Assembly (NCBI GenBank): GCA_052143815.1
Contig: JBKQSA010000103.1
Coordinates: forward strand, 53,763-117,762
Origin: Steroidobacteraceae bacterium
GTDB taxonomy: Bacteria > Pseudomonadota > Gammaproteobacteria > Steroidobacterales > Steroidobacteraceae
Reading direction: 5' to 3'
Length of the DNA: 64,000 nt
Part shown: positions 9,130 to 52,681 of the stretch, in pieces
Layout: each line of letters opens with the position of its first letter
Position numbering within the stretch: the first letter of the stretch is position 1
Translations under genes and position numbers: made by a program
The notes under the pieces: generated by a model
Databases searched by the model: none
Seen by the model: only the letters and a program-made list of their open reading frames with translations
Told to the model about the DNA's origin: nothing

Positions 9130-9281
9130 CGGAACTGGGAAAATTACGCGCAGTTCGATGAGCGCGCTCGACGCGGCGAGCCGTCTGCTTCTGCGGATGA
9201 GCGACGTTTGGTGCATAATGCAATGATCTAGCCCATGTATATTGCGCCGGCTTGCTAGACCCTCGAGAGAATCACCCCACA

Positions 9282-35891: not shown

Positions 35892-36050
35892 ATGCATTTA
35901 TTCGTGAGCCGCGCCCGCGAACGCGAAATATCGTTCGCAATTCGCGGTAATCTCATCATCCTCGCACCGCCGCTGGTGATTCTCGAAAATGATCTCCAGC
36001 TGGCGCTCGACACCATGGATCGCTTGCTCGGGGAGTTGAACTGGACATGA
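35892..36050 (+). pseudogene. C-terminal remnant of a class III aminotransferase
   Basis: ...FVSRAREREISFAIRGNLIILAPPLVILENDLQLALDTMDRLLGEL* matches the conserved (G)N-x-I-x-L-x-PPL-x-I tail. Its TGA overlaps the ATG of the intact aminotransferase gene. Confidence 0.55.
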
Positions 36051-37405
36051 AAAACACACACATCAAAACCGATTTGCCGGGTCCCAAGGCTCGTCAGTTG
36101 CTTGCGCGCGATGCGCTCGTGGTTTCACCCTCGTATCCACGGGACTACCCGTTCGTGATGTCCCACGGCAAAGGGGCTGAAGTCTGGGATGTGGACGGCA
36201 ACCGCTTTTTGGATTTTGCGGCCGGCATTGCCGTTTGCAGCACCGGCCATAGCCATCCGGTGGTAGTGCAAGCCATCAAAGATGCAGCGGATCGGTTTTT
36301 ACATATTTCCTCGGACTATTGGCACGAGGGCCAGGTTCGGCTGGGTGAGCGGATCAACGAATTGTCGCCGATGAAACAGCCGGTGATGAGTTTCTTTGCG
36401 CAGTCCGGCACCGAAAGCGTCGAGGCAGCACTCAAGCTGGCGCGCTATGTCACCGGCCGCGGCCGCTTCATCGGATTTCTGGGCGGATTCCACGGTAGAA
36501 CCATGGGGTCTCTGGCGTTCACGTCCAGCAAGTACACCCAACAAAAAGGCTTTTTTCCGACCATGCCGGGCGTCACCCATGTGCCGTATCCGAATAACTA
36601 TCGGCCATTGTTCGCAGGCCTCGATCAGGGTCGCGCCGTGCTGCGTTATATCGAGGAGGTCCTGTTCGTCTACAACGTGCCGGCCAACGAAGTCGCGGCC
36701 ATCCTGGTCGAACCCATTCAAGGCGAGGGGGGCTACCTCGTTCCGCCCGATGGATTTCTGGCCGGCTTGCGTGAGCTTTGCGACCGGCACGGCATTCTCC
36801 TGATTTTCGACGAGGTTCAGTCCGGCATCGGACGCACCGGCAAGATGTTCGCATCCCAACACTGGGATGTGGCTCCCGACATCATGACGTTGGCGAAGGG
36901 TTTGGGGTCCGGCATGCCCATCGGCATGATGGTCGCGAATCGCACCATCATGCAGAAATGGTCGCGCGGCGCTCATGGAAACACCTTCGGTGGCAATCCG
37001 TTGTGTTGTGCGGCCGCGCTCGCGACGCTCGACCTGGTCGAGCATCGCTACCGGGAAAATGCCGCCAAAGTTGGCGATTACTTCATGAAAAAATTGCGCG
37101 CGCTCGCGGACAAGTATGCAGTGATCGGCGAAATCCGCGGCAAGGGGCTGATGATCGGTATGGAACTGGTGACCGATGCAGCCAGCAAGACTCCGGCCAA
37201 GGAATTTTGCGATGCCATCATCACGCGCGCGTACCACAACGGGTTGATCCTGCTGTCCTGCGGCCAGAGCACCGTTCGCTTCATGCCGCCCTTGATGATT
37301 CGCGATTCCGACGTCGATGAAGCCGTGAACCTGCTCGATCATACGATGGCCGAAGAACTCTCGAGTACGCACCTGCACGTCGCTCGAGGCGTTGCAAGCG
37401 CCTGA
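36047..37405 (+). CDS. gabT: Class III aminotransferase, GabT-like (4-aminobutyrate/omega-amine)
   Basis: DFAAGIAVCSTGHSHP, EPIQGEGGY, LIFDEVQSGIGRTGKMFA, TLAKGLGSGMP (PLP Lys) and GLILLSCGQSTVRFMPPL. Confidence 0.85.
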   Translation: MKNTHIKTDLPGPKARQLLARDALVVSPSYPRDYPFVMSHGKGAEVWDVDGNRFLDFAAGIAVCSTGHSHPVVVQAIKDAADRFLHISSDYWHEGQVRLGERINELSPMKQPVMSFFAQSGTESVEAALKLARYVTGRGRFIGFLGGFHGRTMGSLAFTSSKYTQQKGFFPTMPGVTHVPYPNNYRPLFAGLDQGRAVLRYIEEVLFVYNVPANEVAAILVEPIQGEGGYLVPPDGFLAGLRELCDRHGILLIFDEVQSGIGRTGKMFASQHWDVAPDIMTLAKGLGSGMPIGMMVANRTIMQKWSRGAHGNTFGGNPLCCAAALATLDLVEHRYRENAAKVGDYFMKKLRALADKYAVIGEIRGKGLMIGMELVTDAASKTPAKEFCDAIITRAYHNGLILLSCGQSTVRFMPPLMIRDSDVDEAVNLLDHTMAEELSSTHLHVARGVASA

Positions 37406-37407
37406 GC

Positions 37408-38526
37408 ATGACGTCGATGGCTTTCAGTCGAATTCGCACTGCATTGCTGCTGTTGATGGTGAGTACGATGGTAGGTTTCGGCGTTCGTGCCGCCGCGGCC
37501 GAAGAGAAACGCTTGTTCATTTATAACTGGACCGACTTCATCGGTCCCGACACCATCGAAAAATTCGAGAAATTGACCGGCGTCAAGGTGACCTACGACG
37601 TCTACGACGCGGAGGAGACCATGGAGGCGAGGCTCATGGCCGGCAGTTCGGGTTACGACGTGGTGAGCGCGTCGACCGATTTTTTCAGCCGCGAGATCAA
37701 GGCCGGCGTCTATATTGCCTTGGACAAATCCAAGTTGCCCAACTGGCATAATCTCGATCCGCGGATATTGGCCATCCAGGCCGCCTACGATCCCGGCAAC
37801 GCCCATGCGGTACCGTACCTGCATTCCATCAACGGATTCGCCTACAACGTCGATATGATCAAGGCGCGCATGCCGAACGCGCCGGTGGACAGTCTGGACA
37901 TGATATTCAAGCCGGAAGTGGTGTCCAAATTTGCCGATTGCGGCGTGACCTTTCTCGACTCGGCGGAAGACGTGCTGCAGCTGGCGCTGCGGTACTTGGG
38001 ACTCGATCCCAACACCACTGACGCCAAGGACTTCGAGGCCGCCGAGGCCATGCTGCTGAAAGTGCGTCCCTTCATTCGTTCTTTCGATTCGTCGGAATAC
38101 ATGAACGGACTCGCCAACAAAGAGGTTTGCGTCGCGATGTCCTGGTCCAGCGACTATGCGTTGTCGAGCGCACGTGCTCGGGCCGTCGGGGTTCGGTTGA
38201 ACCTGGCGTTCACCGTGCCGAAAGAAGGCGCCAATCAGACGTTTTCGTCGCTTCTCATTCCCGAAGGAGCTCCGCATCCGCAAGCCGCCTATCAATTCAT
38301 CGACTTCATTCTGCGGCCGGACGTCATCGCCGAGATCACCAATTCGATCTATTATGGCAACGACAATATCGCGTCGCGATCCTTGGTCGATCCGCGTATT
38401 CTCAACGACGTGACGCTCTATCCCACACCGGACATGGAGCAGCGGCTCTACAGGTCTGCGGAAGTGACCGCGGCGACGGAGCGCATTCGTACCCGTACGT
38501 GGACCCGTGTCAAGACCGCTAAATGA
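37408..38526 (+). CDS. potF: Putrescine/polyamine ABC transporter substrate-binding protein PotF-like
   Basis: Matches remembered E. coli PotF along its length: LFIYNWTDFIGPDTIEKFEKLTGVKVTYDVYD, LDKSKLPNWHNLDP, FTVPKEGA and C-terminal RIRTRTWTRVKTAK. Confidence 0.9.
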   Translation: MTSMAFSRIRTALLLLMVSTMVGFGVRAAAAEEKRLFIYNWTDFIGPDTIEKFEKLTGVKVTYDVYDAEETMEARLMAGSSGYDVVSASTDFFSREIKAGVYIALDKSKLPNWHNLDPRILAIQAAYDPGNAHAVPYLHSINGFAYNVDMIKARMPNAPVDSLDMIFKPEVVSKFADCGVTFLDSAEDVLQLALRYLGLDPNTTDAKDFEAAEAMLLKVRPFIRSFDSSEYMNGLANKEVCVAMSWSSDYALSSARARAVGVRLNLAFTVPKEGANQTFSSLLIPEGAPHPQAAYQFIDFILRPDVIAEITNSIYYGNDNIASRSLVDPRILNDVTLYPTPDMEQRLYRSAEVTAATERIRTRTWTRVKTAK

Positions 38527-38545
38527 GTGAACGGTGAGGACTGCA

Positions 38546-39212: not shown

Positions 39213-40043
39213 TTACCGTTCGGCCAGCTGCGCGTCCATGAGGCGATGCCGTTCCGCTCGGCGCATGAAGTATCCGGCGAGCAGCACGCACGCGCCGACC
39301 AGGCAGATGATGAGGCTGGCGAGTGCGTTGATGTCGGGGCTGACGCCGAGTTTGACCTTCGAAAAAATCACCATCGGCAGCGTGCTTGCCCCGGGGCCCG
39401 ATACAAAGCTGGAAATCACCAGATCGTCGAGCGACAAGGTGAAGCTGAGCAGCCAGCTGGACGCCAGCGCGGGCGCGATGCCGGGCAATGTGGTATCCAC
39501 GAAGGCACGCACCGGACCGGCGCCGAGATCCATGGCGGCTTCCTCCAACGATCGGTCCGCACTTTGCAAGCGCGACTGCACGGTGATCGTCACATAGGCG
39601 GTGCAAAAAGCAATGTGCGCGATCACGATTGTCGTGAAACCGCGATGCGGCCAGCCGAACAGATGCAGCATCGACACGAACAACAACAACTGCGTGATGC
39701 CGGTGATGATCTCGGGCATCACCAACGGGGCGTTGACCATGCCCGTGAGCAGCAGACGGCTGCGAAATACTTTGAACCGGACCAGGGATATCGCAGCCAG
39801 GGTGCCAAGGATCACTGCGCCGGTGGAGACGACTACGCCGATTTGCAGCGACAACCATGCAGCGTCGAGAATCTGGTCATTATGCAATAGCTGCGTGTAC
39901 CAGCCGGTGGAGAAACCGCCCCAGACGCTCACGAGGGCTGAAGCATTGAAGGAGTAACCGATAAGCACGAGAATAGGCACGTATAGAACGGCGATGCCGA
40001 TGCAGAGGATCGAGATCAGCAGCGGTGATACACGCTCGTTCAT
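39213..40043 (-). CDS. potI: Polyamine ABC transporter permease PotI/PotC-like
   Basis: MNERVSPLLISILCIGIAVLYVPILVLIGYSFN... with an EAA loop (LEEAAMDLGAGPVRAF). ATGA overlap with the upstream permease gene. Confidence 0.85.
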   Translation of the reverse strand: MNERVSPLLISILCIGIAVLYVPILVLIGYSFNASALVSVWGGFSTGWYTQLLHNDQILDAAWLSLQIGVVVSTGAVILGTLAAISLVRFKVFRSRLLLTGMVNAPLVMPEIITGITQLLLFVSMLHLFGWPHRGFTTIVIAHIAFCTAYVTITVQSRLQSADRSLEEAAMDLGAGPVRAFVDTTLPGIAPALASSWLLSFTLSLDDLVISSFVSGPGASTLPMVIFSKVKLGVSPDINALASLIICLVGACVLLAGYFMRRAERHRLMDAQLAER

Positions 40044-40978
40044 GAGGCTTCCAACTGCTTGGTGCTGTAGTGCTGGTAGAGGGCAATCGGTCCAACCAGC
40101 AGCACCAAGAATGCAATGGCGACGGCGGACGCCACCGGCCAATCGCGGTTGCCGAAAAATTCATCCCATAGCACGCGGCCGATCATCAGATTGTCAGGGC
40201 CACCCAACAGCGTGGGGATGACGAATTCGCCGATCGCGGGGATGAACACCAGCATGGAACCGGCGATGATCCCCGGCATGGACAGAGGCAGGGTCACGTC
40301 GATGAATGCGCGCCACGGGGGGCTCCCCAAGTCGGCGGCCGCCTCGAGCAGGGAAGGGTCCAGCTTCTCCAAGGTCGCGAACAGCGGCAGCACCATGAAC
40401 GGCAAATACGAATAGATGATGCCGAGGTACACCGCAAAGGTCGTTCGCATGATCTGTAAGGGGTGATGGATGATGCCCAACCACAGCAGTGCCGAATTGA
40501 GCAGCCCGGTCTCGCGGATGATGCCCTCGAGCGCGTAGACGCGCAGCAGGAACGAGGTCCAAAACGGGAGAATGATGATGAGCAGCAAAATACTTTGCGT
40601 ACTTTTCGAGGTCCGTGCAATGGCGTAGGCCATGGGATAGCCAAGAGCCAAACAGATGAGCGTAGAAAAAAAAGCCGTCTTTATCGAATATAAATAGGAA
40701 AGGCCATACACTTGATCGGTGAACAGATACTTGAAGTTGCCGAGGTTCAACGTCATGTGGACATGCCAATCCGGGCTCATGGAAAAGATATCCGTGAACG
40801 GAGGCACCCTCACCGCGGTGTCGGCGAAGCTGATGACCAGAGCGAACGCGAACGGAATGAGGAAAAAAACCAGGAGGAACAGCAGCGGCGGCAGAATGAT
40901 CAGCCATTTACCGTGGCGTTTCAGCCACTCGCCCCTCGAGGGCCCGCGCCAGTCGCCGCGCGGCCGCGTATCAGCCAT
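40040..40978 (-). CDS. potH: Polyamine ABC transporter permease PotH/PotB-like
   Basis: WLIILPPLLFLLVFFLIPFAFALVISF and LLEAAADLGSPPWRAFIDVTLPLSMPG. The start at M43 of ORF 40040..41104 is provisional. Confidence 0.85.
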   Translation of the reverse strand: MADTRPRGDWRGPSRGEWLKRHGKWLIILPPLLFLLVFFLIPFAFALVISFADTAVRVPPFTDIFSMSPDWHVHMTLNLGNFKYLFTDQVYGLSYLYSIKTAFFSTLICLALGYPMAYAIARTSKSTQSILLLIIILPFWTSFLLRVYALEGIIRETGLLNSALLWLGIIHHPLQIMRTTFAVYLGIIYSYLPFMVLPLFATLEKLDPSLLEAAADLGSPPWRAFIDVTLPLSMPGIIAGSMLVFIPAIGEFVIPTLLGGPDNLMIGRVLWDEFFGNRDWPVASAVAIAFLVLLVGPIALYQHYSTKQLEAS

Positions 40979-40993
40979 GAGCGTGAACTTCAA

Positions 40994-42733
40994 TTGAGCC
41001 CGCGAAAAAAGACGAACAAGGAGGCGTCCGGCGCGCCCCGAGCGCGCAAGACCCATGGCCGGCAGCGCCAGCGATTGATCGAGGCATGCATATCGGCGCT
41101 GCACATCTACGGTCCGTCACGGACCACCGTGGAAAAAGTCGTGGCGATTGCGAAAATGTCACCTGGCATCGTTCGATTCTACTTCGACTCCAAAGCCGCC
41201 ATGCTCGTCGCATCGTTGCAATTCCTCGCCGCCGAATTCGAGGAACGGCTGTTGGTCCCCGTGGCAAAACTCAAATCAACGCCCGTAGCCGCGCTCGAAC
41301 TGATCGTCGATCTGTATCTCGACCCGGACATTGCCAGTCCCCGCAAGGTGTCCGTTTGGTATGCATTTTGGGGCGAGGCAAACTCCCGGCAGGAATACTA
41401 CGACATTTGCGGACAGAAGGACGAGAGCTTCGCAGCATTGGTTCGCGAATTGATCGAGAGTTTGATCATCGAGACCTCGCAGCCGCAGTTGGACCCGGAC
41501 GGAATCGCCCTCGGCCTCATCGGCGTGCTGGAAATGCTATGGCAGGATTTCGCTTTTCGAACGGAGCGCAATATCGATCGTGCCGCAGCCAAGCGGCGCT
41601 GCATGGCCTACCTGCGTTCGATATTCCCCGGCCAGTTTGCCGTATCGGACGGCCACGCGTTGCCGCCCGTGGCCTTACCGGTTGGCGTCGGGCGATTACC
41701 GGGATGGGCGTATGCGGATGCGCGCATTCATGCGATGGAGCGCGAGCTGCTGTTTCAGAACGCTTGGGCGGTAGTAGGCCACGAATCGCAGGTCGCGCAC
41801 GCGGGGGAATTCCTGTGTATCGACAGCGGCGCCGAACGGGTGCTGGTGGTGCGTGACGCCTTGGGGGCCGTGCATGCGTTGCGAAATAGCTGCCCGGAGT
41901 CGCCGCACGCGCTGCTCCCCGCCCGCCGCGGTCGCTTGGACGCGGGCATCGAGTGCAAGCTGCACGGGCTACAGTTCCGTTTGAACGGTAAGTGTGCGAC
42001 GGGGTCGGGGCGGATGGATTTGGGTGTTCTCGATTGGTCATCAGTGGGCGGGCTGATGTTCGCGAAATCAGCCGCCCGCGAGCGGTCGGCCGACGCGCCG
42101 GCCCCCGCAGCATGGTTCGACGCGGCACCACCGCAAGGTTTGATGATGCTTGGCCCCGCCATCGAATTGCCTGTAGCCGCCGATTGGAAAGTCGTGGTCG
42201 AACAATGGCTCGATTCGACCATGCACGGCGTGGCGCCCTACGGGACGCCCTACGGGACGGCCGATTTCGCGCCGAGCCCTGCGGTGGATTCGATGGTTTG
42301 GCATGCCGCGATCTTGAGTGACCCCGGCTGGAGCGGGCGCCGCTATCGGAAGCTGATGGCGTGCACTTCGGAACGCACCTGGCGCCGGCAATTCATCGCG
42401 CCGAATCAGTTGCTGGAAACGCGCCCCGATGGCTTGGCGGTGGTGCAGGCCATTCCCGTCGCGCCCGGACGTTGTCTCGTGCGCCGGCTGGACTACAGCG
42501 TGCTTGCGCCGGACGCAGGCTCGATGGCGGTGCTGCATCTTGCGCGGCGTTTGGGGCCGTATGCTCGAAGAACGACGCGGGATGTAGCGGAATCCATACA
42601 GAAGGGGATGGTCGAATTCGGCTATCAAGTCGCGCCCGGCGCGCCGATTTCGCCGGCCGTCGCTTGGTTTCGCAATCGCCTCGCTGCCCGCATTCCCGCA
42701 CTGGCGCGCCGCCAGCCACCGACCGATACCTGA
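40994..42733 (+). CDS. Fusion protein: BetI/TetR-type regulator joined to a degenerate Rieske-oxygenase alpha-subunit-like domain
   Basis: A single open frame. The TetR HTH is RQRLIEACISALHIYGPSRTTVEKVVAIAKMSPGIVRFYF, with a BetI-like core (VWYAFWGEANSRQEY). About 390 aa follow that are paralogous to the 44345..45541 product, with altered ligands (CPESPH...CKLH). The start is uncertain (TTG 40994). The part of ORF 40712.. upstream of that lies antisense to potH. Confidence 0.8.
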   Translation: MSPRKKTNKEASGAPRARKTHGRQRQRLIEACISALHIYGPSRTTVEKVVAIAKMSPGIVRFYFDSKAAMLVASLQFLAAEFEERLLVPVAKLKSTPVAALELIVDLYLDPDIASPRKVSVWYAFWGEANSRQEYYDICGQKDESFAALVRELIESLIIETSQPQLDPDGIALGLIGVLEMLWQDFAFRTERNIDRAAAKRRCMAYLRSIFPGQFAVSDGHALPPVALPVGVGRLPGWAYADARIHAMERELLFQNAWAVVGHESQVAHAGEFLCIDSGAERVLVVRDALGAVHALRNSCPESPHALLPARRGRLDAGIECKLHGLQFRLNGKCATGSGRMDLGVLDWSSVGGLMFAKSAARERSADAPAPAAWFDAAPPQGLMMLGPAIELPVAADWKVVVEQWLDSTMHGVAPYGTPYGTADFAPSPAVDSMVWHAAILSDPGWSGRRYRKLMACTSERTWRRQFIAPNQLLETRPDGLAVVQAIPVAPGRCLVRRLDYSVLAPDAGSMAVLHLARRLGPYARRTTRDVAESIQKGMVEFGYQVAPGAPISPAVAWFRNRLAARIPALARRQPPTDT

Positions 42734-42786
42734 AAATTCACTATACTGGCGACCTTCGCGACGATCACTGAATGGGAGAATTTCGT

Positions 42787-44286
42787 ATGACCCTGGCTTC
42801 CTTGAGCACCAGCGACTGGCATGCACGCGCCGCAAGCGTGCGTTACGAGACCGGACATTTCATCGACGGCAAGGCGGTGGATTCGGTGGCGAAGGGCCGT
42901 TTCACCGTGGTCAATCCTGCCACCGGCGCGCCGCTGTGCGAAGTGAGCGCCGGCACCGCCGCCGATATCGATCTGGCCGTCGCAGCGGCGAAGCGCACCG
43001 TGAAATCCCGCGTATGGAGCCGCATGGCGCCTCGCGATCGCATGGCCGTGCTGGCGGCGTATGCCCGGTTGATCGATGCGAATGCCGAGCGCTTCGCGCT
43101 GCTCGACACGCTTTGCATGGGCAAGCCGATCTCCGATATGGTGAACATCGATGTGCCTTCTGCGGCGAAGAATTTCGCCTATTTCGGCGAGCTCGTGGAC
43201 AAAATCGACGGCGCGGTGACCGCCACCGCGCAGGACGCCTTCCATTACATTTTGCGCGAGCCGTTGGGCGTGGTGGGTTGCATCGTGCCGTGGAATTACC
43301 CGTTGTTGATGGCGGCCTGGAAAGTCGCGCCGGCGCTGGCGGCGGGCAATTCGGTGGTGTTGAAACCCGCGGAACAGTCGCCCTTGTCGGGGCTGCTGAT
43401 GGCTCAATTGTTCGTCGAGGCGGGCGGCCCGCCGGGCGTGTTCAACGTCGTGAACGGCTTGGGCGAAACCGCGGGCGCTGCATTGGCGCTGCATAGCGAT
43501 GTCGCCAAGATTGCATTCACCGGTTCAACGGAGATCGGCAAGCAGATGCTGATTTACGCCGGCCAATCCAACATGAAGCGCGTGGCGTTGGAATGCGGCG
43601 GCAAGACGCCGCAGATCTTTCTCGCCGACATGCCCGACATGGACACCGCCGTCACGTATGCGATCAATGGCATCTACGGCAACATGGGCGAGGTGTGCAA
43701 TGCCGGTTCGCGGCTTTTGATCGATCGTCCCATCGCGGAGGAATTCATCGCCCGATTCATCGAAAAGGGCAAATCGGCGTATAAGGCCGGCGACCCGCTC
43801 GATCCGACCACCAACTTGGGGCCGTTGGTCACCGCATCGCACCGCGCGCGCGTGATGAATTACATCACCCGCGGCAAGAGCGAAGGTGCGCGCTTGGAAT
43901 TCGGCGGCAATACACCGGATCTGCCGGGCGCCTACGTCAATCCGACCCTGTTCACCGGCGTGAACAATCGAATGACCATTGCTCAAGAAGAGATCTTCGG
44001 ACCGGTGGCGGCCGCGATTGAAATCGACGGCATTGCCGAAGCTTTGACGGTGGCGAACGATTCGATCTACGGTTTGGCCGCCTCGGTATGGACGCGCGAT
44101 CTGTCGGTGGCACACAAAACGGTGCGGGACTTGGAGGCCGGCGTCATCTGGGTGAACTGTTTCGACCACGGCGACATGACGCAGCCGTTTGGCGGCTACA
44201 AGCAATCCGGCCAAGGTCGCGACAAATGCCTGGAGAGTTTGATCTCTTACACGCAGACCAAGTCGGCGTGGATCCATTTGGGTTGA
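42787..44286 (+). CDS. Aldehyde dehydrogenase, PuuC-like (aminobutyraldehyde-type)
   Basis: FTGSTEIGKQM, LECGGKTPQIF, EVCNAGSRLL and DHGDMTQPFGGYKQSGQGRDKCLESL, which closely resembles the E. coli PuuC tail. The ATG at 42787 follows GGGAGA. Confidence 0.9.
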   Translation: MTLASLSTSDWHARAASVRYETGHFIDGKAVDSVAKGRFTVVNPATGAPLCEVSAGTAADIDLAVAAAKRTVKSRVWSRMAPRDRMAVLAAYARLIDANAERFALLDTLCMGKPISDMVNIDVPSAAKNFAYFGELVDKIDGAVTATAQDAFHYILREPLGVVGCIVPWNYPLLMAAWKVAPALAAGNSVVLKPAEQSPLSGLLMAQLFVEAGGPPGVFNVVNGLGETAGAALALHSDVAKIAFTGSTEIGKQMLIYAGQSNMKRVALECGGKTPQIFLADMPDMDTAVTYAINGIYGNMGEVCNAGSRLLIDRPIAEEFIARFIEKGKSAYKAGDPLDPTTNLGPLVTASHRARVMNYITRGKSEGARLEFGGNTPDLPGAYVNPTLFTGVNNRMTIAQEEIFGPVAAAIEIDGIAEALTVANDSIYGLAASVWTRDLSVAHKTVRDLEAGVIWVNCFDHGDMTQPFGGYKQSGQGRDKCLESLISYTQTKSAWIHLG

Positions 44287-44344: not shown

Positions 44345-45541
44345 TCAGCCGCGGCGTACCTCGCTGAACTGCTTCGGCGCCGCCGGCAACCGAAACTCCG
44401 GTATGCGCTCGCGCAGCAGATCGTGGAATTCGAGCATGCAACCTTCGAGCTGCGACAGCGGGCCGGGTCTATAGCTGCTCGACGCTAGGCCCCGTTGGAC
44501 GCGCTCGCACAACCATTTATCCTCGTTGTTCACGGAGGCATTGATGCGGTTGCTCAAGAATCGGACAGCGCGCATTTCCCGAGTCGTGCTCGGCAAACCG
44601 AATACCGCGCCGCGAATGATGCATTTTCCGGGACCCGCAGGCAGCACTTGGAAAAAGTCCATTTGGTCCGGGTACACGTCGATGCCTAAATTGGGCAAGG
44701 CGCTGTAGAACCGCCAAACGCGGCGCTGGTCCTCGGGCAAATGCGCGACTGCCCGCCCGATCAGCGATTGATACAGGCCTTCAGACCAGCGCGGCGATCG
44801 CTTCTCGCGCAGCCAGCTCGAGCCCCGAGCAACGCCCGGCACCGTGGCCTGATCCTCGTAGTCCGGAGTGAACATGCGGAATAGGCCAGGGTGGCCGATG
44901 GGTACGTGGTAGGACTCCAGGTAGTTATCCATCGCTATCTTCCAGTCGACATTCCACACATCCGACGAGATAGGGCTGAGCGGCACCATTTCCTCGCAGC
45001 GATAGGCGGCAAGTTCCTCACCGAGCTTTCCCCACATCAGGGACACGGGCTGGGGGAGGCCAAATTCGGAATCGGGCGCCAGGCAGACGAAGACGAAACC
45101 AAAGGCGATATCCGTGCGCACAGACCTGAGTCCATGGTCCGCACGATTCAGACCGGGGAAGCTCTCCTTCACCGGCATGCCGATCAGCGCGCCATCGTGA
45201 CGATAGGTCCAGCCGTGATAGGGACACGTGATGGTCGCCGGGCAGGTTCCGGCGCCATCGAGTAAACGGGCCCCACGGTGACGGCAGACGTTGTGGAACG
45301 CCCGGATGGACCCGTCGCGATCTCGTAGCACGAGCACGCTTTCGGGGCCCAAATCGAACGTCGCGTAATCGCCGGCCTTGGGAATCGAATTGACGTGACA
45401 AACGATCTGCCAGCTTGGCATTAAAACGCGTTCGCGTTCGAGCCGGGCGAGCTCAGGATGGCTGTATACCCACGCCGGTAGGGCGCGCGGCAATCCGGCA
45501 TCGGCAGCATTGGCGGGTGTCGCGGCGGACCAGCTGTGCAT
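44345..45541 (-). CDS. Rieske non-haem-iron oxygenase alpha subunit (GbcA/choline-monooxygenase-like group)
   Basis: CRHRGARLLDGAGTCPATITCPYHGWTY and DNYLESYHVPIGH. A GGAGA Shine-Dalgarno lies upstream. Confidence 0.88.
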   Translation of the reverse strand: MHSWSAATPANAADAGLPRALPAWVYSHPELARLERERVLMPSWQIVCHVNSIPKAGDYATFDLGPESVLVLRDRDGSIRAFHNVCRHRGARLLDGAGTCPATITCPYHGWTYRHDGALIGMPVKESFPGLNRADHGLRSVRTDIAFGFVFVCLAPDSEFGLPQPVSLMWGKLGEELAAYRCEEMVPLSPISSDVWNVDWKIAMDNYLESYHVPIGHPGLFRMFTPDYEDQATVPGVARGSSWLREKRSPRWSEGLYQSLIGRAVAHLPEDQRRVWRFYSALPNLGIDVYPDQMDFFQVLPAGPGKCIIRGAVFGLPSTTREMRAVRFLSNRINASVNNEDKWLCERVQRGLASSSYRPGPLSQLEGCMLEFHDLLRERIPEFRLPAAPKQFSEVRRG

Positions 45542-45795: not shown

Positions 45796-47124
45796 ATGGC
45801 GAGAAATCTCACCAACAGCAATGCACATTTCAAGCGCGCCGTGAAGCGGCTGCCGTTGGGCGTTGCTTCGAATTTCCGCTACTGGGGCGACGATCGGACC
45901 ATCTATGTGAAACACGGGAAGGGTGCTCGAATCGTCGACCTGGACGACAACGTGTATGTCGACTACCGCATGGGCTATGGGCCGGCGATTTTGGGGTATG
46001 CCGACGAACGCGTCGACGCCGCGGCCCGCGAGGGTATGGAAGTGGGCGGTGTATTCGCCTTGTCGACGGAACGCGAACTGAGGGTGGCCGAGCGCATTTC
46101 CAAAATGGTGCCGGCGGCGGAACTCGTGCGCTTCTCGAATTCCGGAACCGAAGCGGTGATGGCGGGTTTGCGCCTCGCGCGTGCCTACACGGGCAAGGAC
46201 GATTACGTGATTTTGGAGGGCAGCTATCACGGCTTGTTCGATGCCGCGATGTGGTTCACGCCCATGGATAAATGGTCGCAGGTGGGCGATCCGGAAGTTA
46301 AACCGTACAGCGAAGGCGTGCCGGTCAGCACGAGGAGCTTCGCGCATTTCGTGCAGGCTAACGACGCCAATCAGCTGGAGGACGTATTCAAGCGCCATGC
46401 GCAACGCATCGCGTGTTTGTTGATCGAGCCGATCATGGGCAACTGTCTCGGCATCGCGGCCGAGCCGGAGTATCTGCGCGCCGCGCGCGAGCTATGCGAC
46501 AAGCACGATGTGGTGTTGCTCATCGACGAAGTCAAAACCGGGTTCCGCGTGGCGCGCGGCGGCGTCCAGGAGCTGTATAACATCACAGCCGATTTGTGCA
46601 CGTTCGCGAAGGCGCTTGGGAACGGTTATCCCATTTCCGTGCTTGCAGGCCGCGAAGAGATCATGCGCAAGATCGGTCGTGGTGTCGCGCACGGCGGCAC
46701 CTACACGGCGCACTCCGTGTCTCTGGCCGCCGCCGAGAAGTGTCTCGAGATTCTCGACGAAACGGACGCCCTGGAACGGGTCGCCGCTTACGGCACGAAT
46801 CTGCGCAATGGCATGCGCGCGATATTGGCAGCGCGGGGAATCGCGCACAGCTTCGTCGGCCATCCATCGATGAGCGGTCTGTATTTCGCCCATGAGCCGC
46901 CGCGCAATTATCGCGCGTGGAAGAGCAGCGACTACTCGTTCTATGATGCGATGGCTCAGGTGTTGCACGACGAAGGCATCTTGTGCGAACCCGACTCGCG
47001 CGAACCGTGGTTCGTTTCCGCCGCGCACGACGCAGCATGTCTTGCCGATACGCTGAAGGGATTCGAGATTGCGGTGGATGCCACACTGCAGTCGAGCGGC
47101 GCGACGCATAAAGTGCCTGCTTGA
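45796..47124 (+). CDS. Class III aminotransferase, HemL (GSA aminomutase)-like subgroup
   Basis: RFSNSGTEAVMAGLRLARAYTGKDDYVILEGSYHG, LLIDEVKTGFRVARGG and TFAKALGNGYP. The ATG at 45796 follows AAGGGGA. Confidence 0.85.
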   Translation: MARNLTNSNAHFKRAVKRLPLGVASNFRYWGDDRTIYVKHGKGARIVDLDDNVYVDYRMGYGPAILGYADERVDAAAREGMEVGGVFALSTERELRVAERISKMVPAAELVRFSNSGTEAVMAGLRLARAYTGKDDYVILEGSYHGLFDAAMWFTPMDKWSQVGDPEVKPYSEGVPVSTRSFAHFVQANDANQLEDVFKRHAQRIACLLIEPIMGNCLGIAAEPEYLRAARELCDKHDVVLLIDEVKTGFRVARGGVQELYNITADLCTFAKALGNGYPISVLAGREEIMRKIGRGVAHGGTYTAHSVSLAAAEKCLEILDETDALERVAAYGTNLRNGMRAILAARGIAHSFVGHPSMSGLYFAHEPPRNYRAWKSSDYSFYDAMAQVLHDEGILCEPDSREPWFVSAAHDAACLADTLKGFEIAVDATLQSSGATHKVPA

Positions 47125-48749
47125 GCGCCGAACCGGCAGGATCGGCTGCGGTGGGTCATCCTAAGGACCTCGACGCCATCATTGTCGGGGCGGGTCACAA
47201 CGGGTTGGTGGCGGCGTGCTATCTGGCGCGCGCTGGATTGAAGGTGCTGGTGCTGGAACGCAACCCCTTCATCGGCGGCGCAGCGGTCAGCCGCAAGCTC
47301 TACAAGGACTTTACGTACTCGAATTGTTCCTACGTGTGCAGCCTGCTGCGCCCGGAAATCATGCGCACCTTGGAATTGCCCAAATTCGGGCTGCAGATCA
47401 TTCCGTATGAAGGCGGCTGCACCATGATGCAGGGCGGCGGGCATCTGGCCCTTTACGACAACCACGATGCGTTGCGCCGGGAGATTTCGCGGCATTCCAA
47501 GCGCGATGCGGAGGCGTACGACCGGTACTCGAGGGACGTAATGCGTCAGTGCAAGTTCATCAAGCCGCTGCTGATGCGCGAGCCGCCCGATCCCGCCTCG
47601 TTCAAACCGCGCGATATCCAGGAACTTCTGTATCTCGGCAAGCGCTTTCATGGCCTGGGCGAGGAGCGCATGTACGACACGCTGCGCTTCTGGACCATGA
47701 GCGCCGCCGATTTTCTCGACGAATACTTCGAAAGCGAAATCGTCAAAGCGCATTTTGCGGGCAGTTCCATCATCGGCACGGCGTTGGGGCCGCGCTCGCC
47801 GGGGACCGCGTATGTCTTGCTGCATCATTATATGGGCGATATCGACGATACCGTCGGCGCCTGGGGGTTCGCGCGCGGCGGTATGGGCGCGATCAGCAAT
47901 GCGTTGGGGGCGTCCTTCCTGGCGAGCGGCGGCGCCATTCGCAGCGCCGCTCCGGTGACGCAGATTCTGGTGAAGAGCGGTCGGGCCGCCGGAATCGTAT
48001 TGGAGGACGGCGAGGAGATTCGCGCACCGCTGGTGATATCGAACCTGGATGTGCGTCGCACGTTTCTGAAGACCATGGACGCGAAGGACTTGCCCGATGA
48101 GTTCTTGAAGCAGGTCAAGAATTTCAAGATTCGGGGGTCGTCCGGCAAGCTCAATATTGCGCTCGACGGTTTGCCGCGCTTCCCGGCCATACCGGAAGGC
48201 AGCCCAAGCACCCGCGGCGACATGCATGTCACCGACACCATCGAAATGATGGAGCGTGCATACGACGACTGGAAAGAGGGCCGTTGGTCGCGGGCGCCAT
48301 ATATCGATATGTTGATTCCATCGCAGATCGATCCCAGCATGGTGCCGAACGGCAAGCACTACATGTCGGTGTTCGTGCAGTACTGTCCTTATGAACTGGC
48401 CGATGGCGAATGGACTGCCGCCAAACGGCAGGCATTCGGCGAAACCGTCATCAACACCATCGCGCGTCACAGTCCCAACTTCAAGGATCTGATTCTGCAC
48501 GCCGAGATCCGCACGCCCTGGGATATTGAAAACGAAGTCGGACTCACCGAGGGCAACATCTTTCAGGGGGAGTTGACCATGGATCAGTTGTTGTTCAATC
48601 GCCCGGTGCCGGGCTACGCGCAATATCGATCACCGGTGCGCGGCGTTTACATGTGCGGGTCCAGCACGCATCCCGGTGGCGGCGTGATGGGTGCGCCGGG
48701 CGCCAATGCCGCCCGTGCCGTGCTCAAAGATCTAGGGAAGGCGCACTGA
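47121..48749 (+). CDS. FAD-dependent oxidoreductase, phytoene-desaturase/amine-oxidase (CrtI-like) superfamily, copy 1
   Basis: DAIIVGAGHNGLVAACYLARAGLKVLVLERNPFIGGAA dinucleotide-binding motif and C-terminal GVYMCGSSTHPGGGVMGAPG. TTGA overlap with the upstream gene. Confidence 0.8.
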   Translation: MSAEPAGSAAVGHPKDLDAIIVGAGHNGLVAACYLARAGLKVLVLERNPFIGGAAVSRKLYKDFTYSNCSYVCSLLRPEIMRTLELPKFGLQIIPYEGGCTMMQGGGHLALYDNHDALRREISRHSKRDAEAYDRYSRDVMRQCKFIKPLLMREPPDPASFKPRDIQELLYLGKRFHGLGEERMYDTLRFWTMSAADFLDEYFESEIVKAHFAGSSIIGTALGPRSPGTAYVLLHHYMGDIDDTVGAWGFARGGMGAISNALGASFLASGGAIRSAAPVTQILVKSGRAAGIVLEDGEEIRAPLVISNLDVRRTFLKTMDAKDLPDEFLKQVKNFKIRGSSGKLNIALDGLPRFPAIPEGSPSTRGDMHVTDTIEMMERAYDDWKEGRWSRAPYIDMLIPSQIDPSMVPNGKHYMSVFVQYCPYELADGEWTAAKRQAFGETVINTIARHSPNFKDLILHAEIRTPWDIENEVGLTEGNIFQGELTMDQLLFNRPVPGYAQYRSPVRGVYMCGSSTHPGGGVMGAPGANAARAVLKDLGKAH

Positions 48750-48750
48750 C

Positions 48751-50319
48751 ATGGCGCCGCGACGCGCGCCACCGCGCTATGACTGCATCGTAATCGGCGG
48801 CGGTCATAACGGCTTGGTCTGCGCCGCCACCTTGGCGCGCGGCGGGCGTTCGGTGCTCGTACTGGAGGCGCAGTCGCACGTCGGCGGAGCGTCCTCGACA
48901 CGAGAATTCGCGCCGGGATTTCAGGTGTCGGCCTGCGCGCATCTGTTGCATCTCATGCCCGCCGAACTGATCCGTGAACTCAAGTTGGAATCCCATGGCC
49001 TCAAATGGTCCGCGCAGAGCATGCCGACCACGGCCTTGCTTGCCGGCGGCTCGCCGTTGGCCGTGAATCGATCCGGTTTGTCGGGTTCGGATGCCGCGGC
49101 TTATGCGGTGTATTACGCGCGCATGCGGCGCTTCGCCCAGGCGCTGGCGCCGCTCCTCGGCAAGGTGCCCCCGCGATTGGGCACTGCCGATTGGTCCGAT
49201 CGTTGGGCACTGCTCGGCTTGGGTTGGCAGATCCGCAGGCTCGGTCGGCGCGACATGCGCGAGTTGCTGCGGATCGGCGGGATGAACGTCTTCGATTTGC
49301 TCGAGGAGAACTTCGAGTCCGATATTCTCAAGGGCGCACTGGGGTTCGACGCCGTGCTCGGCACGAATTTCGGTCCGCGTTCTCCGGGAACGGTGCTGAC
49401 CCTGCTGTACCGTCTGGCTGCCGAATTCGCGGGCGGTCCCACCACTTTGTCGCAACCGGCCGGCGGCTTGGGCGCATTGTGCGATGCTCTGGCGAAGTCG
49501 GCGGCCCACGCAGGCGCGGAAATCCGCACCGCTTCGCCGGTGGCGCGCATTCTGGTCGAAGCGGATCGGGCGGTGGGAGTGGAACTCGTGTCCGGCGAAC
49601 GCATCGCGGCCGCAGCGGTGGCGTCGAGCGCCGACCCCAAGACCACGTTCCTGAAGCTGCTCGGCACGCGGCACCTGGACACCGGCTTCGTGCGCCGCGT
49701 GCAGCATTTTCGCGCGAAAGGGCTGGCCGCCAAGCTGCATCTTGCGTTGGACCGCGCGCCGCAATTCGCCGGCGTCGATGCCGCAGCCTCGAGTGGCCGG
49801 TTGCTGCTGGCCCCTTCGTTGCACTATCTCGAGCAGGCTTACAATCACGCCAAATACGGGGAGTATTCGTCCGCTCCCGCCCTTGAAGTCACCGTTCCCA
49901 CGATCAACGACCCTGGGCTGGCGCCGCCCGGCAAGCACGTGCTGTCCGCCATCGTGCAATACGCGCCTTATGCGCTCAAGGCCGGCTGGCAAAGCCAGCG
50001 GGAGCGATTCACGGAGCTGTGCATCGATACGTTGGAGAGCGTGGCGCCAGGCCTGCGCGGCAGCGTGCTCAAAGCGGAATTGCTGACGCCGGTGGACATC
50101 GAACAAGAACACGGCATCGACGGCGGCCACTGGCATCATGGCGAATTGGCGTTCGATCAATTCTTCATGGTTCGTCCGGTTCCGGGAGCCGCGCAACATC
50201 GCACGCCGCTGCCGGGCTTGTACTTGTGCGGAGCCGGCTGCCACCCGGGAGGCGGAGTCATGGGTACGGCGGGCCGCAATGCCGCGCATCAGCTCATGAA
50301 ACCGGGTGCCGCCCCATGA
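48751..50319 (+). CDS. FAD-dependent oxidoreductase, CrtI-like superfamily, copy 2 (paralogue)
   Basis: YDCIVIGGGHNGLVCAATLARGGRSVLVLEAQSHVGGAS and GLYLCGAGCHPGGGVMGTAG. Starts 1 nt after the previous stop. Confidence 0.8.
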   Translation: MAPRRAPPRYDCIVIGGGHNGLVCAATLARGGRSVLVLEAQSHVGGASSTREFAPGFQVSACAHLLHLMPAELIRELKLESHGLKWSAQSMPTTALLAGGSPLAVNRSGLSGSDAAAYAVYYARMRRFAQALAPLLGKVPPRLGTADWSDRWALLGLGWQIRRLGRRDMRELLRIGGMNVFDLLEENFESDILKGALGFDAVLGTNFGPRSPGTVLTLLYRLAAEFAGGPTTLSQPAGGLGALCDALAKSAAHAGAEIRTASPVARILVEADRAVGVELVSGERIAAAAVASSADPKTTFLKLLGTRHLDTGFVRRVQHFRAKGLAAKLHLALDRAPQFAGVDAAASSGRLLLAPSLHYLEQAYNHAKYGEYSSAPALEVTVPTINDPGLAPPGKHVLSAIVQYAPYALKAGWQSQRERFTELCIDTLESVAPGLRGSVLKAELLTPVDIEQEHGIDGGHWHHGELAFDQFFMVRPVPGAAQHRTPLPGLYLCGAGCHPGGGVMGTAGRNAAHQLMKPGAAP

Positions 50320-51524
50320 CGTCTGCGAAAACGCTCGCGCCCCACTTCAAGCAACCGCTGCTCGAAACTCCGTTTCACGCCCGGGCCAGGGCCTTGAGTC
50401 AAGTCGACAGCTTCGTCGCGTGGGCCGGCTACACGACCGTCGATGTCTTCACGTCGGTCGAGCAGGAATACTTCGCGATTCGCAATGCGACGACGCTCTA
50501 CGATTTGACGCCGATGGTGAAGTATCGAATCGCCGGCCCGGACGCCGTGCCGTACTTGAACCGCTTGGTGACGCGCGATCTTGCGAAGCTCAAACCCGAT
50601 CGCGTCGCGTACTGCGTCTGGTGCAACGATGCCGGTCGCCTGATCGATGACGGCACCGTGTTCCGGCTGGGGGAGGCTGAATTCCGCCTCTGTACCGCCG
50701 AACGGCAGATCGACTGGTTGCTGGATTCCGCCATCGGTTTCGATGTAAAAATCGCTGAAGTCACCGAGGACATTGCGGCGCTCGCGGTGCAAGGGCCCAC
50801 TTCCTGTGCCGTCTTGACGGCAGCCGGCCTGGCCGGAATCGACCGGTTGAAACCCTTCGAGATCGGCTATTTCAACGTCGACGGGCGACCACTCACCGCA
50901 TCGCGTACCGGTTTCACCGGCGACCTCGGCTATGAGTTGTGGATGGCGCCGCAGGACGCGGAAGCGGTATGGGATGCCTTGATGGCGGCGGGGCGCTCGC
51001 GGGGTATTCGCGCAATCGGCTCGCAGGCACTCAACATTGCGCGACTCGAGGCGGGGTTTCTGAGTCCGAATGTGGATTTCATATCCGCGGAACATACCAT
51101 TCGCCCCGGCCGAGATCGCTCGCCGTTGGAATTGGGTCTTGCGTGGCTGGTCGATTTCGACAAGGGACATTTCAACGGCCGTCGCGCGCTCCTGGCAGAA
51201 CGTCGGCGCGGCCCGCGCCGACAGCTCGTCGGATTGGACATTGCGGGCAACAAGCCCGCCCACAATGCCCTCTTATATGCCGAGGCCAACGGTAAGCGCG
51301 AAATCGGCAGCGTCAGTTCGGCGGCGTGGTCGCCGACTTGCAAGCGCAACATTGCCCTTGCTATGGTCGAGGCATCGCACGTCCGGATAGGATCGACGGT
51401 CTGGGCGGAAATCTATCTTAACCGTGAACTCGTGTGGGAGCGCCGTATGTCGCGTGCCGTGGTGGTGGAGCGTCCGTTTTTCGCGCCGAGCCGACGCCGC
51501 GCAACCCCACCGACCGAGTTTTAG
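50316..51524 (+). CDS. Aminomethyltransferase (GcvT/DmdA)-family folate-binding protein
   Basis: LYDLTPMVKYRIAGPDAVPYLNRLVTRDL, AALAVQGP, SRTGFTGDLGYELW and EAGF. ATGA overlap with the upstream gene. Confidence 0.85.
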   Translation: MTSAKTLAPHFKQPLLETPFHARARALSQVDSFVAWAGYTTVDVFTSVEQEYFAIRNATTLYDLTPMVKYRIAGPDAVPYLNRLVTRDLAKLKPDRVAYCVWCNDAGRLIDDGTVFRLGEAEFRLCTAERQIDWLLDSAIGFDVKIAEVTEDIAALAVQGPTSCAVLTAAGLAGIDRLKPFEIGYFNVDGRPLTASRTGFTGDLGYELWMAPQDAEAVWDALMAAGRSRGIRAIGSQALNIARLEAGFLSPNVDFISAEHTIRPGRDRSPLELGLAWLVDFDKGHFNGRRALLAERRRGPRRQLVGLDIAGNKPAHNALLYAEANGKREIGSVSSAAWSPTCKRNIALAMVEASHVRIGSTVWAEIYLNRELVWERRMSRAVVVERPFFAPSRRRATPPTEF

Positions 51525-51535
51525 GCTCCTAGCGC

Positions 51536-52681
51536 GTGGTGTCGACGCAGCAGAAATCGATCGCCGACCGACCCTGGCTCGATCCCGACGCCAGACCGCA
51601 GATCGTCATCGAAAGCATCGACAAGACGTTCGGCGCATTCACCGCCGTCGACAGCGTCAACTTGAGAATCTACAAGGGCGAGATGTTTGCCCTGGTCGGT
51701 GCCTCCGGGTGCGGTAAAACAACGTTGCTCCGCATGCTTGCTGGGTTCGCCACCCCCACCGGCGGGCGGATCATGATCGATGACGTGGACATGACCACGG
51801 TCCCGCCGCATGAGCGCCCGGTCAACATGATGTTCCAGTCTTATGCTTTGTTCCCGCACATGACGGTCGAGCAGAACGTGGGCTACGGCTTGCGCCGCAT
51901 GTCGCTCGAGGCCCCCGTCAGGAACAAGCGCATCCAAGATGCGCTGGAGATGGTGCAACTGGGGGCCTTGGCAAAGCGTAAACCACATCAACTCTCCGGC
52001 GGACAACGGCAGCGCGTCGCGCTGGCGCGTGCGCTCATTCGCCGGCCGAAGGTGCTGTTGCTGGACGAGCCGTTAAGTGCTTTGGATAAGAAATTGCGGG
52101 AGCAAACGCAATTCGAGCTCATGAATATTCAGTATCAGGTTGGCATCACGTTTGTTTTCGTTACCCATGACCAAGACGAGGCCATGGCGCTGTCCACGCG
52201 CATCGCCGTGATGAACCGGGGCCAGGTCTTGCAGGTGGGCACGCCGTCCGAAATCTATGAATTTCCGCAGAGCCGATTCGTCGCCGATTTCATCGGCACC
52301 ACCAATCTCTTCGAAGGCACGGTGAGCGGCAGCGAGCGAGGGGCTATCACCGTGCGCAGCGCGGAGGCCGGTTGCGACCTGGTCGTCGATGAGCTTGGAC
52401 GTTTCGGCAGCGGTCAGCGTGTGTGGGTTGCCTTGCGCCCGGAGAAGATACGCCTGAGCAAGCAGCCGGTCGACGGCAGCGGCATGAATCAGATGAAGGG
52501 CGTCGTGTGGGAGTTGGGTTATCTCGGCAATCGCTCCACCTACCGCATCAAGACGGAGACCGGCAAATTGGTTACGGTGTTCGCTCAAAACGACCGCCGC
52601 ACTTCCGAGTGGTCGATCGATTGGAGCGATGAGGTCTATCTCAGTTGGTCCGCCAACGGCGCCGTCATTTTGCAGCAGTGA
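51536..52681 (+). CDS. potG: Polyamine ABC transporter ATPase PotG/PotA-like
   Basis: GASGCGKTTLLRMLAGF, LSGGQRQRVALARAL and LLLDEP, followed by a C-terminal regulatory (TOBE-like) domain. Confidence 0.9.
   Translation: MVSTQQKSIADRPWLDPDARPQIVIESIDKTFGAFTAVDSVNLRIYKGEMFALVGASGCGKTTLLRMLAGFATPTGGRIMIDDVDMTTVPPHERPVNMMFQSYALFPHMTVEQNVGYGLRRMSLEAPVRNKRIQDALEMVQLGALAKRKPHQLSGGQRQRVALARALIRRPKVLLLDEPLSALDKKLREQTQFELMNIQYQVGITFVFVTHDQDEAMALSTRIAVMNRGQVLQVGTPSEIYEFPQSRFVADFIGTTNLFEGTVSGSERGAITVRSAEAGCDLVVDELGRFGSGQRVWVALRPEKIRLSKQPVDGSGMNQMKGVVWELGYLGNRSTYRIKTETGKLVTVFAQNDRRTSEWSIDWSDEVYLSWSANGAVILQQ

Follow-up and report, generated by a model that had tools for sequence, protein, structure and literature searches.

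A conserved PYROXD2-like flavoprotein pair coupled to a free-standing GcvT-family protein: a candidate split N-demethylase of Steroidobacteraceae

A 64,000-nucleotide stretch of a Steroidobacteraceae bacterium genome (assembly GCA_052143815.1, contig JBKQSA010000103.1, positions 53,763 to 117,762; hereafter the window) encodes two paralogous PYROXD2-like flavoproteins that carry flavin adenine dinucleotide (FAD) motifs (FAD1 and FAD2), followed directly by a free-standing folate-binding protein of the GcvT family, all embedded in the locus of a Pot-type polyamine importer. The trio is a conserved evolutionary unit and is read here, with a probability of about 0.6, as a split, folate-coupled flavoprotein N-demethylase. 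One or both flavoproteins would oxidize the bond between an amine nitrogen and its methyl carbon, yielding an iminium (a formaldehyde equivalent), and the GcvT-like protein would trap the carbon on tetrahydrofolate (THF) as 5,10-methylene-THF, with release of the demethylated amine. No description of such a module was found in full-text searches, which cover the literature incompletely.

The trio genes lie on the forward strand behind a HemL/GntE-like class-III aminotransferase (AT3b, 45796..47124, +, Aminotran_3 196 bits), which is the first gene of the operon. FAD1 (47121..48749, 542 aa, TTG start) overlaps the aminotransferase stop codon through the TTGA at 47121-47124, FAD2 (48751..50319, 522 aa, ATG start) follows after a 1-nt gap (TGA-c-ATG, 48747-48753), and the GcvT-like gene (50316..51524, 402 aa counted from ATG) overlaps the end of FAD2 through the ATGA at 50316-50319. 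The three open reading frames (ORFs) and their tight junctions, as given in the initial annotation, are read directly from the sequence. The FAD1 start has a competitor in the window, an in-frame GTG at 47151 with an AGGA box upstream; however, the TTG that overlaps the upstream stop is kept in about 36 of 40 relatives (loci L001-L040; GTG takes its place in one), and the downstream GTG shows no conservation among them. The overlapping TTG is therefore favored. In the same 40 loci, the last alanine codon of the aminotransferase (window 47118-47124) is GCT and once GCG, never GCC or GCA, even though the genome has 62% G+C. It is this codon that supplies the TTG or GTG start across the TGA stop, a constraint that looks like selection for translational coupling. 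Relative to the initial annotation, the start of AT3b most likely has to be moved from the first TTG of the ORF (45598) to the ATG at 45796: family models match only from residue 67 of the ORF, the position of this ATG. Terminator and promoter scans returned nothing exceeding shuffled expectation.

A gene-neighborhood survey bears out that the three genes travel together. FAD2 and the GcvT-like gene follow FAD1 in 65 of the 66 Steroidobacteraceae loci with enough downstream DNA, the exception having a fragmentary FAD2. In that locus (L048, 11600-13160), the only one of its kind among the relatives, FAD1 and the GcvT-like gene are retained, and the fragment could stem from decay of the gene or from misassembly. 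Among 400 sampled genomes of the phylum, 10 besides this one carry FAD1 homologs of 58-69% identity; seven loci from five other genera of Pseudomonadota (FAD1 homologs 56-69% identical) were examined, and all have FAD2 and the GcvT-like gene directly 3' of the FAD1 homolog. The trio is also carried on plasmids of the cultured Shinella zoogloeoides XJ20 (p1; MOE34_RS22990, RS22985 and RS22980) and Parasedimentitalea marina W43 (pW43C; EBB79_RS23545, RS23550 and RS23555), with genes that overlap or stand 11 nt apart. Its proposed distinctness from the canonical SoxABDG, DgcAB and PuuB arrangements holds, as the unit is conserved across families and canonical dimethylglycine dehydrogenase (DMGDH) and soxB/D/A genes are found separately on the same contig.

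FAD1 and FAD2 are 38% identical across 523 residues, in keeping with the two paralogs of about 530 residues first described, and the initial placement in the phytoene desaturase/amine oxidase superfamily is right: both score above the gathering threshold (19.8 bits) of Pfam Amino_oxidase (PF01593; 52.7 bits for FAD1 and 78.1 bits for FAD2). The GxGxxG...E block of the N-terminal dinucleotide fold and the HPGGG block of the C-terminal FAD motif are conserved in both proteins, while the DAO profile matches only the first ~40 residues of the N-terminal Rossmann segment. The best curated model is that of the CrtO ketolase (NF045689), which matches over the full length with 273 bits (FAD1) and 225 bits (FAD2) against a cut-off of 1000; the scores for FAD1 and FAD2 are 102 and 119 bits for crtI_fam (TIGR02734, cut-off 238), 92 and 92 bits for CrtISO (cut-off 587) and 74 and 76 bits for CrtD (cut-off 580). 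FAD1 was modeled with confidence by AlphaFold (AF2) from an alignment of 70 sequences (predicted local distance difference test 93, predicted template-modeling score 0.92). The model has CrtD (4rep, TM 0.77/0.85) as its best Foldseek match, followed by CrtI and then by the amine oxidases NicA2, monoamine oxidase (MAO) and putrescine oxidase, with identities of 13-18% throughout. The predicted fold is thus CrtI-like, yet both flavoproteins lie outside every curated carotenoid family. No carotenoid pathway genes (phytoene synthase etc.) are present in the window, and the only two SQS_PSY genes of the genome are on other contigs (C130 and C107). With all curated carotenoid models missed and no carotenoid gene context, a carotenoid function was rejected and is for practical purposes ruled out for this pair, and PYROXD2-like is a better label than the CrtI-type used initially. 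The outcome that the initial annotation would have counted as refutation, tight clustering with carotenoid desaturases and carotenoid genes close by, did not occur, as judged by the curated models and the gene context.

The label derives from a representative match (P0166) whose cluster carries the name of an oyster (Magallana gigas) PYROXD2. Full-length identity to the oyster protein is 38% for FAD1 (543 aligned positions), 35% for FAD2 and 43% for a third paralog of the genome. In a flavoprotein tree built without a carotenoid outgroup (CrtI, CrtO), the FAD1-position proteins form one clade and the FAD2-position proteins another, each with 100% support, and the stand-alone bacterial paralogs group with animal PYROXD2 (support 89), separate from both. 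Since both clades are fully supported, the duplication predates the split of the alpha- and gammaproteobacteria, with the two genes co-inherited thereafter. A Crocinitomicaceae protein (P0121 cluster), from a metagenome-assembled genome labeled as Bacteroidota, also falls inside the FAD1 clade. The third paralog of the genome, its closest to animal PYROXD2, is encoded on contig C89 (16000-20200; locus L094, 8565-12199) directly 3' of a BetI-type TetR gene and a Rieske oxygenase gene, with a 690-aa flavoprotein of old yellow enzyme (OYE)/Pyr_redox type nearby and no adjoining GcvT gene.

The two flavoproteins of the trio are under unequal constraint. Conservation in the locus is highest for FAD1 (median identity 89.9% over 44 related loci), compared to 80.8% for the GcvT-like gene and 72.5% for FAD2, and the FAD2 branches of the tree are 2-3 times longer than those of FAD1. 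FAD2 nevertheless does not look like a dead paralog: it retains all 47 of the columns that are common to all groups, FAD motifs included, and alters 6 columns that are conserved in the family. Co-inheritance, coupling and the unequal constraint favor a model in which FAD1 and FAD2 are an ancient pair that probably forms a heteromer with FAD1 as the main, and probable catalytic, flavoprotein subunit; alternatively, the two may act on successive methylation states of the substrate.

The third protein was initially called a member of the aminomethyltransferase family, and this agrees with matches above cut-off to GCV_T (PF01571, 192 bits) and GCV_T_C (PF08669, 53 bits). Its nearest solved chain is the C-terminal half of trimethylamine N-oxide (TMAO) demethylase (Tdm; 9q5a, 183 bits), the part of that enzyme that matches the GCV_T profile, followed by T-proteins (1woo) and then by the folate domains of DMGDH, dimethylglycine oxidase (DMGO) and SoxA; Tdm and T-protein have aligned counterparts of its conserved IDDG, SRTGFTGDLGYE and RLEAG blocks. 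The cut-offs of the curated models for GcvT (TIGR00528, 172.7 vs 235.9 bits; PRK00389, 215 vs 300), DmdA (154 vs 410), SoxA (158 vs 1164) and Tdm (272 vs 1100, over model positions 387-761 of the C-terminal half only) are missed. There are 12 GCV_T genes in the genome, and the only gcvH adjoins another of them on contig C33. An identity as the T-protein of glycine cleavage was rejected on account of this gcvT-gcvH pair and the missed cut-offs; the protein looks like a folate subunit instead, and is presumed to serve as the one-carbon acceptor.

The closest functional parallels are DMGO (1pj5), DMGDH (4paa, 5l46), sarcosine dehydrogenase (SARDH) and the heterotetrameric sarcosine oxidase SoxABDG (2gag), which likewise combine a flavin-dependent amine-oxidizing part with a GcvT-type part that captures the one-carbon unit, and whose folate domains (DMGDH, DMGO and SoxA) match the GcvT-like protein at 93-109 bits. 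By contrast, the window flavoproteins are of CrtI/PYROXD2 type (PF01593) rather than DAO type, they are two paralogs, the folate part is a separate protein, and no small subunits resembling SoxD or SoxG are seen with the trio. The trio is not a member of these families by homology, though it may work in a like manner. Tdm offers a second parallel: residues 410-756 of its C-terminal half (9q5a, 9q59) are matched by residues 17-362 of the GcvT-like protein. This half of Tdm accepts the formaldehyde that the N-terminal half produces. The N-terminal catalytic half of Tdm is absent here, and the flavoproteins would instead be the partner that generates formaldehyde. The lysine demethylases LSD1/KDM1 are flavoproteins of the amine oxidase fold that remove N-methyl groups as formaldehyde and that bind THF, and KDM1B gives a weak N-terminal sequence match; unlike the trio, they belong to a different subfamily, act on protein-bound methyl-lysine and have no separate GcvT-type partner. 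CrtD (4rep), CrtI (4dgk) and CrtO share the three-domain fold with the window flavoproteins and supply the best Foldseek matches and the best curated model (CrtO), but differ in sequence (17% identity to the structures), in scores far below the cut-offs and in the lack of carotenoid gene context at the trio.

Fusion proteins of the wider family point to formaldehyde as its product. P0183 (816 aa) joins an N-terminal domain of the glutathione-dependent formaldehyde-activating (GFA) family (59.7 bits) to a PYROXD2-like body that is 39% identical to FAD1, and this architecture recurs in 30 of the best 120 clusters retrieved with the N-terminal 330 residues of P0183, from protist transcript assemblies (eukprot, MMETSP), Perkinsus olseni and metagenomes. 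GFA scored above the Pfam cut-off in five scanned proteins, namely P0183 and four among P0344, P0346, P0355, P0357 and P0363; P0363, from Perkinsus, had no match to GFA at the threshold of the scan, though its precomputed domain list includes it. As the GFA domain is a formaldehyde-handling one, its fusion to PYROXD2-like flavoproteins suggests, by analogy, that these release formaldehyde.

Human genetics gives a further hint in the same direction. In plasma, a missense single-nucleotide polymorphism of PYROXD2 accounts for ~50% of N6-methyllysine variance and 48% of N6,N6-dimethyllysine variance (PMC8109053); N-methylpipecolate and acetylated methyl-lysines are further metabolites associated with it (PMC8109053; PMC13352909), including N2-acetyl-N6,N6-dimethyllysine (PMC13352909). 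The locus is further linked to urinary trimethylamine and plasma dimethylamine, as quoted in PMC8109053, and biallelic PYROXD2 variants are reported as causal for an infantile metabolic disorder (PMC8777681). No reaction for PYROXD2, a human mitochondrial flavoprotein, is reported in the PYROXD2 literature examined. Animal PYROXD2 resembles FAD1 and FAD2 in full-length homology and in the N- and C-terminal FAD motifs, and its human variants control levels of free N-epsilon-methyl-lysines, i.e., N-methyl omega-amines. By contrast, FAD1 and FAD2 form clades of their own, with the stand-alone bacterial paralogs grouping with PYROXD2 instead, and the animal homologs retrieved are single PYROXD2-like chains without a GCV_T domain. 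A tentative proposal for the family as a whole, possible rather than probable, is that PYROXD2-like flavoproteins are formaldehyde-releasing demethylases of omega-N-methyl amines, with the bacterial FAD1/FAD2 heteromer docked to a free folate subunit, the protist forms fused to a glutathione-type trap, and animal PYROXD2 acting on free N-epsilon-methyl-lysines.

The partners of the trio are consistent with methylated-amine catabolism. Those that recur across lineages are a BetI-type TetR regulator, a class-III aminotransferase, a Pot-type ATP-binding cassette (ABC) importer and a Rieske oxygenase, the last encoded at most ~10 kb away in most lineages; some also have a 680-aa flavoprotein of OYE/Pyr_redox type near the trio. 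The neighbors named in the initial annotation (a Rieske oxygenase, a PuuC-like aldehyde dehydrogenase, two aminotransferases and a polyamine importer) are all present, as judged by profile matches. In the window, the alpha subunit of a Rieske non-heme-iron oxygenase (44345..45541, -; Rieske and Ring_hydroxyl_A domains) is divergent from the operon. Its nearest solved chains are those of the stachydrine demethylase Stc2 (3vca), 4qup (titled as a monooxygenase and demethylase in its record), 3n0q and the carnitine oxygenase CntA (6y8j), while the best curated model, GbcA, is matched at 148 bits against a cut-off of 670. Oxygenases related to Stc2, GbcA and CntA recur with the trio in several lineages; the window enzyme has no reductase partner encoded nearby. 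The genome has ten Ring_hydroxyl_A genes and six NAD_binding_1 genes of the FNR type, of which one adjoins a Rieske gene (contig C62) and none are on the contig of the window. Most Rieske oxygenases of the genome are encoded without a reductase nearby.

A parallel is found within the same genome. On contigs C97 (L092, 223-3807) and C67 (L086, 2-3594), a DMGDH-type DAO-FAO_M-GCV_T fusion adjoins an Stc2/GbcA-type Rieske gene, with a 13-nt gap in one case and a 4-nt overlap in the other. Judged by gene content, these loci repeat the design of the window locus with a different flavoprotein; in the window, FAD1 and FAD2 would replace the DAO flavoprotein, and the folate domain is a predicted protein of its own. 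By analogy, the parallel loci are taken to favor N-demethylation by the trio.

The regulator in other lineages is a plain BetI-type TetR encoded divergently upstream of FAD1. In its place, the window has a fusion protein that joins a BetI-type TetR repressor to a Rieske-oxygenase-like domain (40994..42733, +; TetR_N, TetR_C_6 and Rieske) and is the probable regulator of the locus. A class-III aminotransferase stands beside the trio in seven of the eight loci compared, drawn from two different subfamilies. AT3b matches the GntE model at 440 bits against 525, is likewise below the cut-offs of the HemL models, and has glutamate-1-semialdehyde aminomutases and omega-aminotransferases as its nearest solved chains; its orthologs (61-65% identity) adjoin the trio in two other families. 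The second aminotransferase of the window (AT3a, 36047..37405, +, Aminotran_3 423 bits), of the gamma-aminobutyrate (GABA)/acetylornithine type, scores above the PRK05769 cut-off (576 vs 552) and below those of the GABA transaminase models (~368 bits). The aldehyde dehydrogenase (42772..44286, +, Aldedh 524 bits) resembles PuuC (537 vs 850) and betaine aldehyde dehydrogenase (482 vs 669) and is present in most Steroidobacteraceae loci but absent from other lineages.

The importer is predicted to be of the polyamine type. The gene of its PotG-like ATPase (51536..52681, +) starts 11 nt past the GcvT-like gene and is kept there in related loci, which ties the trio enzymes to the importer. The other components are a PotF/SpuD-like periplasmic binding protein (37408..38526, +) and PotI-like and PotH-like permeases (39213..41104, -). 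All four miss the PotFGHI equivalog cut-offs (PotF, 386 vs 636 bits; PotG, 437 vs 613; PotH, 375 vs 489; PotI, 333 vs 476), though the ATPase exceeds that of the polyamine potA subfamily model (399 vs 356). The binding protein matches Pseudomonas aeruginosa SpuD and SpuE (3ttm, 3ttk) and Escherichia coli PotF (1a99) at 355 bits, and the ligand-site block YNWSDY reads YNWTDF in the window protein.

A route can be proposed from these parts. The PotFGHI-type importer would take up a cationic, putrescine-like amine bearing N-methyl groups. The Rieske oxygenase, of Stc2/GbcA/CntA type, would strip one methyl from the quaternary nitrogen, a step that would fall to it because flavoproteins cannot oxidize a quaternary nitrogen. 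The flavoprotein/GcvT set would then remove the remaining methyl groups, and the primary amine set free would be converted by the aminotransferase(s) and then the PuuC-like dehydrogenase, entering the GABA/succinate route. The substrate suggested in the initial annotation, an N-methylated polyamine or a quaternary amine, fits the binding protein of SpuD/SpuE/PotF type, the Stc2/CntA-like Rieske oxygenase and the BetI-type regulators. An N-methylated putrescine- or cadaverine-type amine, to which the SpuD/PotF-like binding protein points, is the leading guess for this lineage, though less likely than not.

Two genes of the locus prompted another line of thought. An HD-domain protein (38534-39115, +), whose gene is flanked by those of the PotF-like protein and the permeases, has the di-iron oxygenases PhnZ and TmpB as its only solved relatives (29 bits over ~40 residues); most Steroidobacteraceae loci have it and other lineages do not. 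An alkaline-phosphatase-superfamily protein (52689-53861, +; weak Phosphodiest and Metalloenzyme matches, no NCBIfam match) follows potG in many related loci and is absent from distant ones. A phosphonate route, via 2-aminoethylphosphonate (AEP) or trimethyl-AEP, was dropped as the principal interpretation since the HD match is weak, the phosphatase-like protein is without an NCBIfam match, and both are missing from other lineages.

Other chemistries for the trio were weighed against N-demethylation. The flavoproteins may instead cleave the backbone C-N bond, releasing methylamine or dimethylamine and an aldehyde by deamination or dealkylation, while the GcvT-like protein carries out a separate methyl transfer of the DmdA/LigM type. 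The Amino_oxidase matches, the structural resemblance to putrescine oxidase, MAO and NicA2, the aldehyde dehydrogenase at the locus, and the trimethylamine and dimethylamine associations of PYROXD2 quoted above are compatible with this, as is the existence of stand-alone demethylases of the GcvT family, with the DmdA and LigM models giving partial matches. However, translational coupling joins the GcvT-like gene to FAD2 in every lineage, the GcvT-like protein resembles DmdA or LigM less than it does the chains of Tdm, T-protein and DMGDH, the GFA fusions suggest formaldehyde rather than methylamine as the product, and the conserved aminotransferase would be superfluous if the flavoprotein already yielded an aldehyde; backbone cleavage is considered unlikely. 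A C-C reaction of the CrtI/CrtD/CrtISO type (desaturation, saturation or isomerization) on a non-carotenoid, amine-bearing substrate, with the GcvT-like protein linked only through the pathway, would sit well with the CrtD and CrtI structural matches and the full-length CrtO model. It is judged quite improbable, as every carotenoid model scores well under its cut-off, the only SQS_PSY genes lie elsewhere, and the neighbors in every lineage are amine importers, aminotransferases, betaine-type regulators and N-demethylase-type Rieske oxygenases; C-C chemistry also leaves the GFA fusions and the human methyl-lysine association unexplained.

A role that is compatible with N-demethylation, and very unlikely as the main function, is that one or both flavoproteins serve chiefly as redox partner of the adjacent Rieske oxygenase, with electrons possibly drawn from the amine. 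In the window, on contig C89 and in unrelated genomes, a Rieske alpha-subunit gene and a PYROXD2-like gene are immediate neighbors, and the surplus of Ring_hydroxyl_A over NAD_binding_1 genes, with a single adjacent pair, would leave room for such a partner. The fold, however, has neither an NAD(P)H domain nor an Fe-S cluster, unlike known Rieske reductases, and the DAO-GcvT fusions are equally adjacent to Rieske genes, which fits consecutive steps of a pathway. Moreover, Rieske oxygenases commonly draw on a shared reductase whose gene lies at another site.

Several points weigh against a folate-coupled N-demethylase. The predicted fold is nearest to the carotenoid desaturases CrtD and CrtI, which oxidize C-C bonds, and amine oxidases rank only after them. 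The GFA fusions are found in eukaryotic relatives and not in the FAD1/FAD2 clade, and the biochemical role of GFA domains is itself debated. DmdA and LigM, as stand-alone GcvT-family proteins, pass methyl groups to folate without a flavoprotein, so the GcvT-like gene could act independently. No FAD-GcvT fusion was found among proteins of at least 950 aa; a fusion of ~940 aa would fall in the shorter class, of which the best 120 matches were all of ~530 aa. Apparent FAD1-FAD2 fusions among public metagenome gene calls (P0324-P0328, 1040-1060 aa) were not counted in support of a heteromer, as they have the appearance of frameshift artifacts: P0325-P0328 lose the FAD1 match at residue 345-409 and continue in Arg-rich linkers, probably as frameshift read-throughs, and P0324 may be a chimeric assembly. 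Outside the Steroidobacteraceae, the binding proteins that accompany the trio are only 23-24% identical to that of the window, with one barely matching SBP_bac_11, and the trio appears to serve different importers in those lineages. A demonstrated activity for any enzyme of the FAD1/FAD2 flavoprotein clade was not found in the literature.

The genome that bears the window (5.5 Mb, 62% G+C) is estimated to be ~99% complete, and the nearest relatives of the window are metagenome-assembled genomes of Steroidobacteraceae from soil, peat and fen. A carnitine module lies downstream of the trio locus, still within the window. Directly past the window end on the same contig (C103, 117763-132300; locus L110) are a fused OpuAC-permease gene, betI-betB, betA, soxA, a small ORF of soxD size, soxB and DMGDH, with DMGDH and soxB/D/A at 8-14 kb from the window end. 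The window and this stretch together are predicted to form a methylated-amine catabolic island of ~90 kb, in which canonical dimethylglycine and sarcosine enzymes are, by homology, already encoded. A dimethylglycine/sarcosine route for the trio was dropped on these grounds, and a different substrate is expected for it because those enzymes are encoded separately nearby. Elsewhere in the window are genes for a VanA-type Rieske oxygenase (6369-7712, +) and a 379-aa flavin oxidoreductase of the OYE family (9252-10391, +), both with no obvious redox partner in the vicinity.

The genes of the trio are at present annotated as "phytoene dehydrogenase-like" and "aminomethyltransferase family protein"; if the N-demethylase assignment is true, they would have a role in the turnover of methylated amines, which are a source of nitrogen and one-carbon units. 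Soil and marine Proteobacteria would then possess a second, unrelated flavoprotein scaffold for folate-linked N-methyl removal. On the more tentative proposal for the whole family, this scaffold would have evolved independently, and a reaction could be assigned to PYROXD2, a human mitochondrial disease gene. Among known genetic determinants of plasma N6-methyllysine, a missense variant of PYROXD2 is the strongest, and the bacterial system would provide a testable hypothesis for this protein, with tractable carriers of the trio at hand in the cultured S. zoogloeoides and P. marina.

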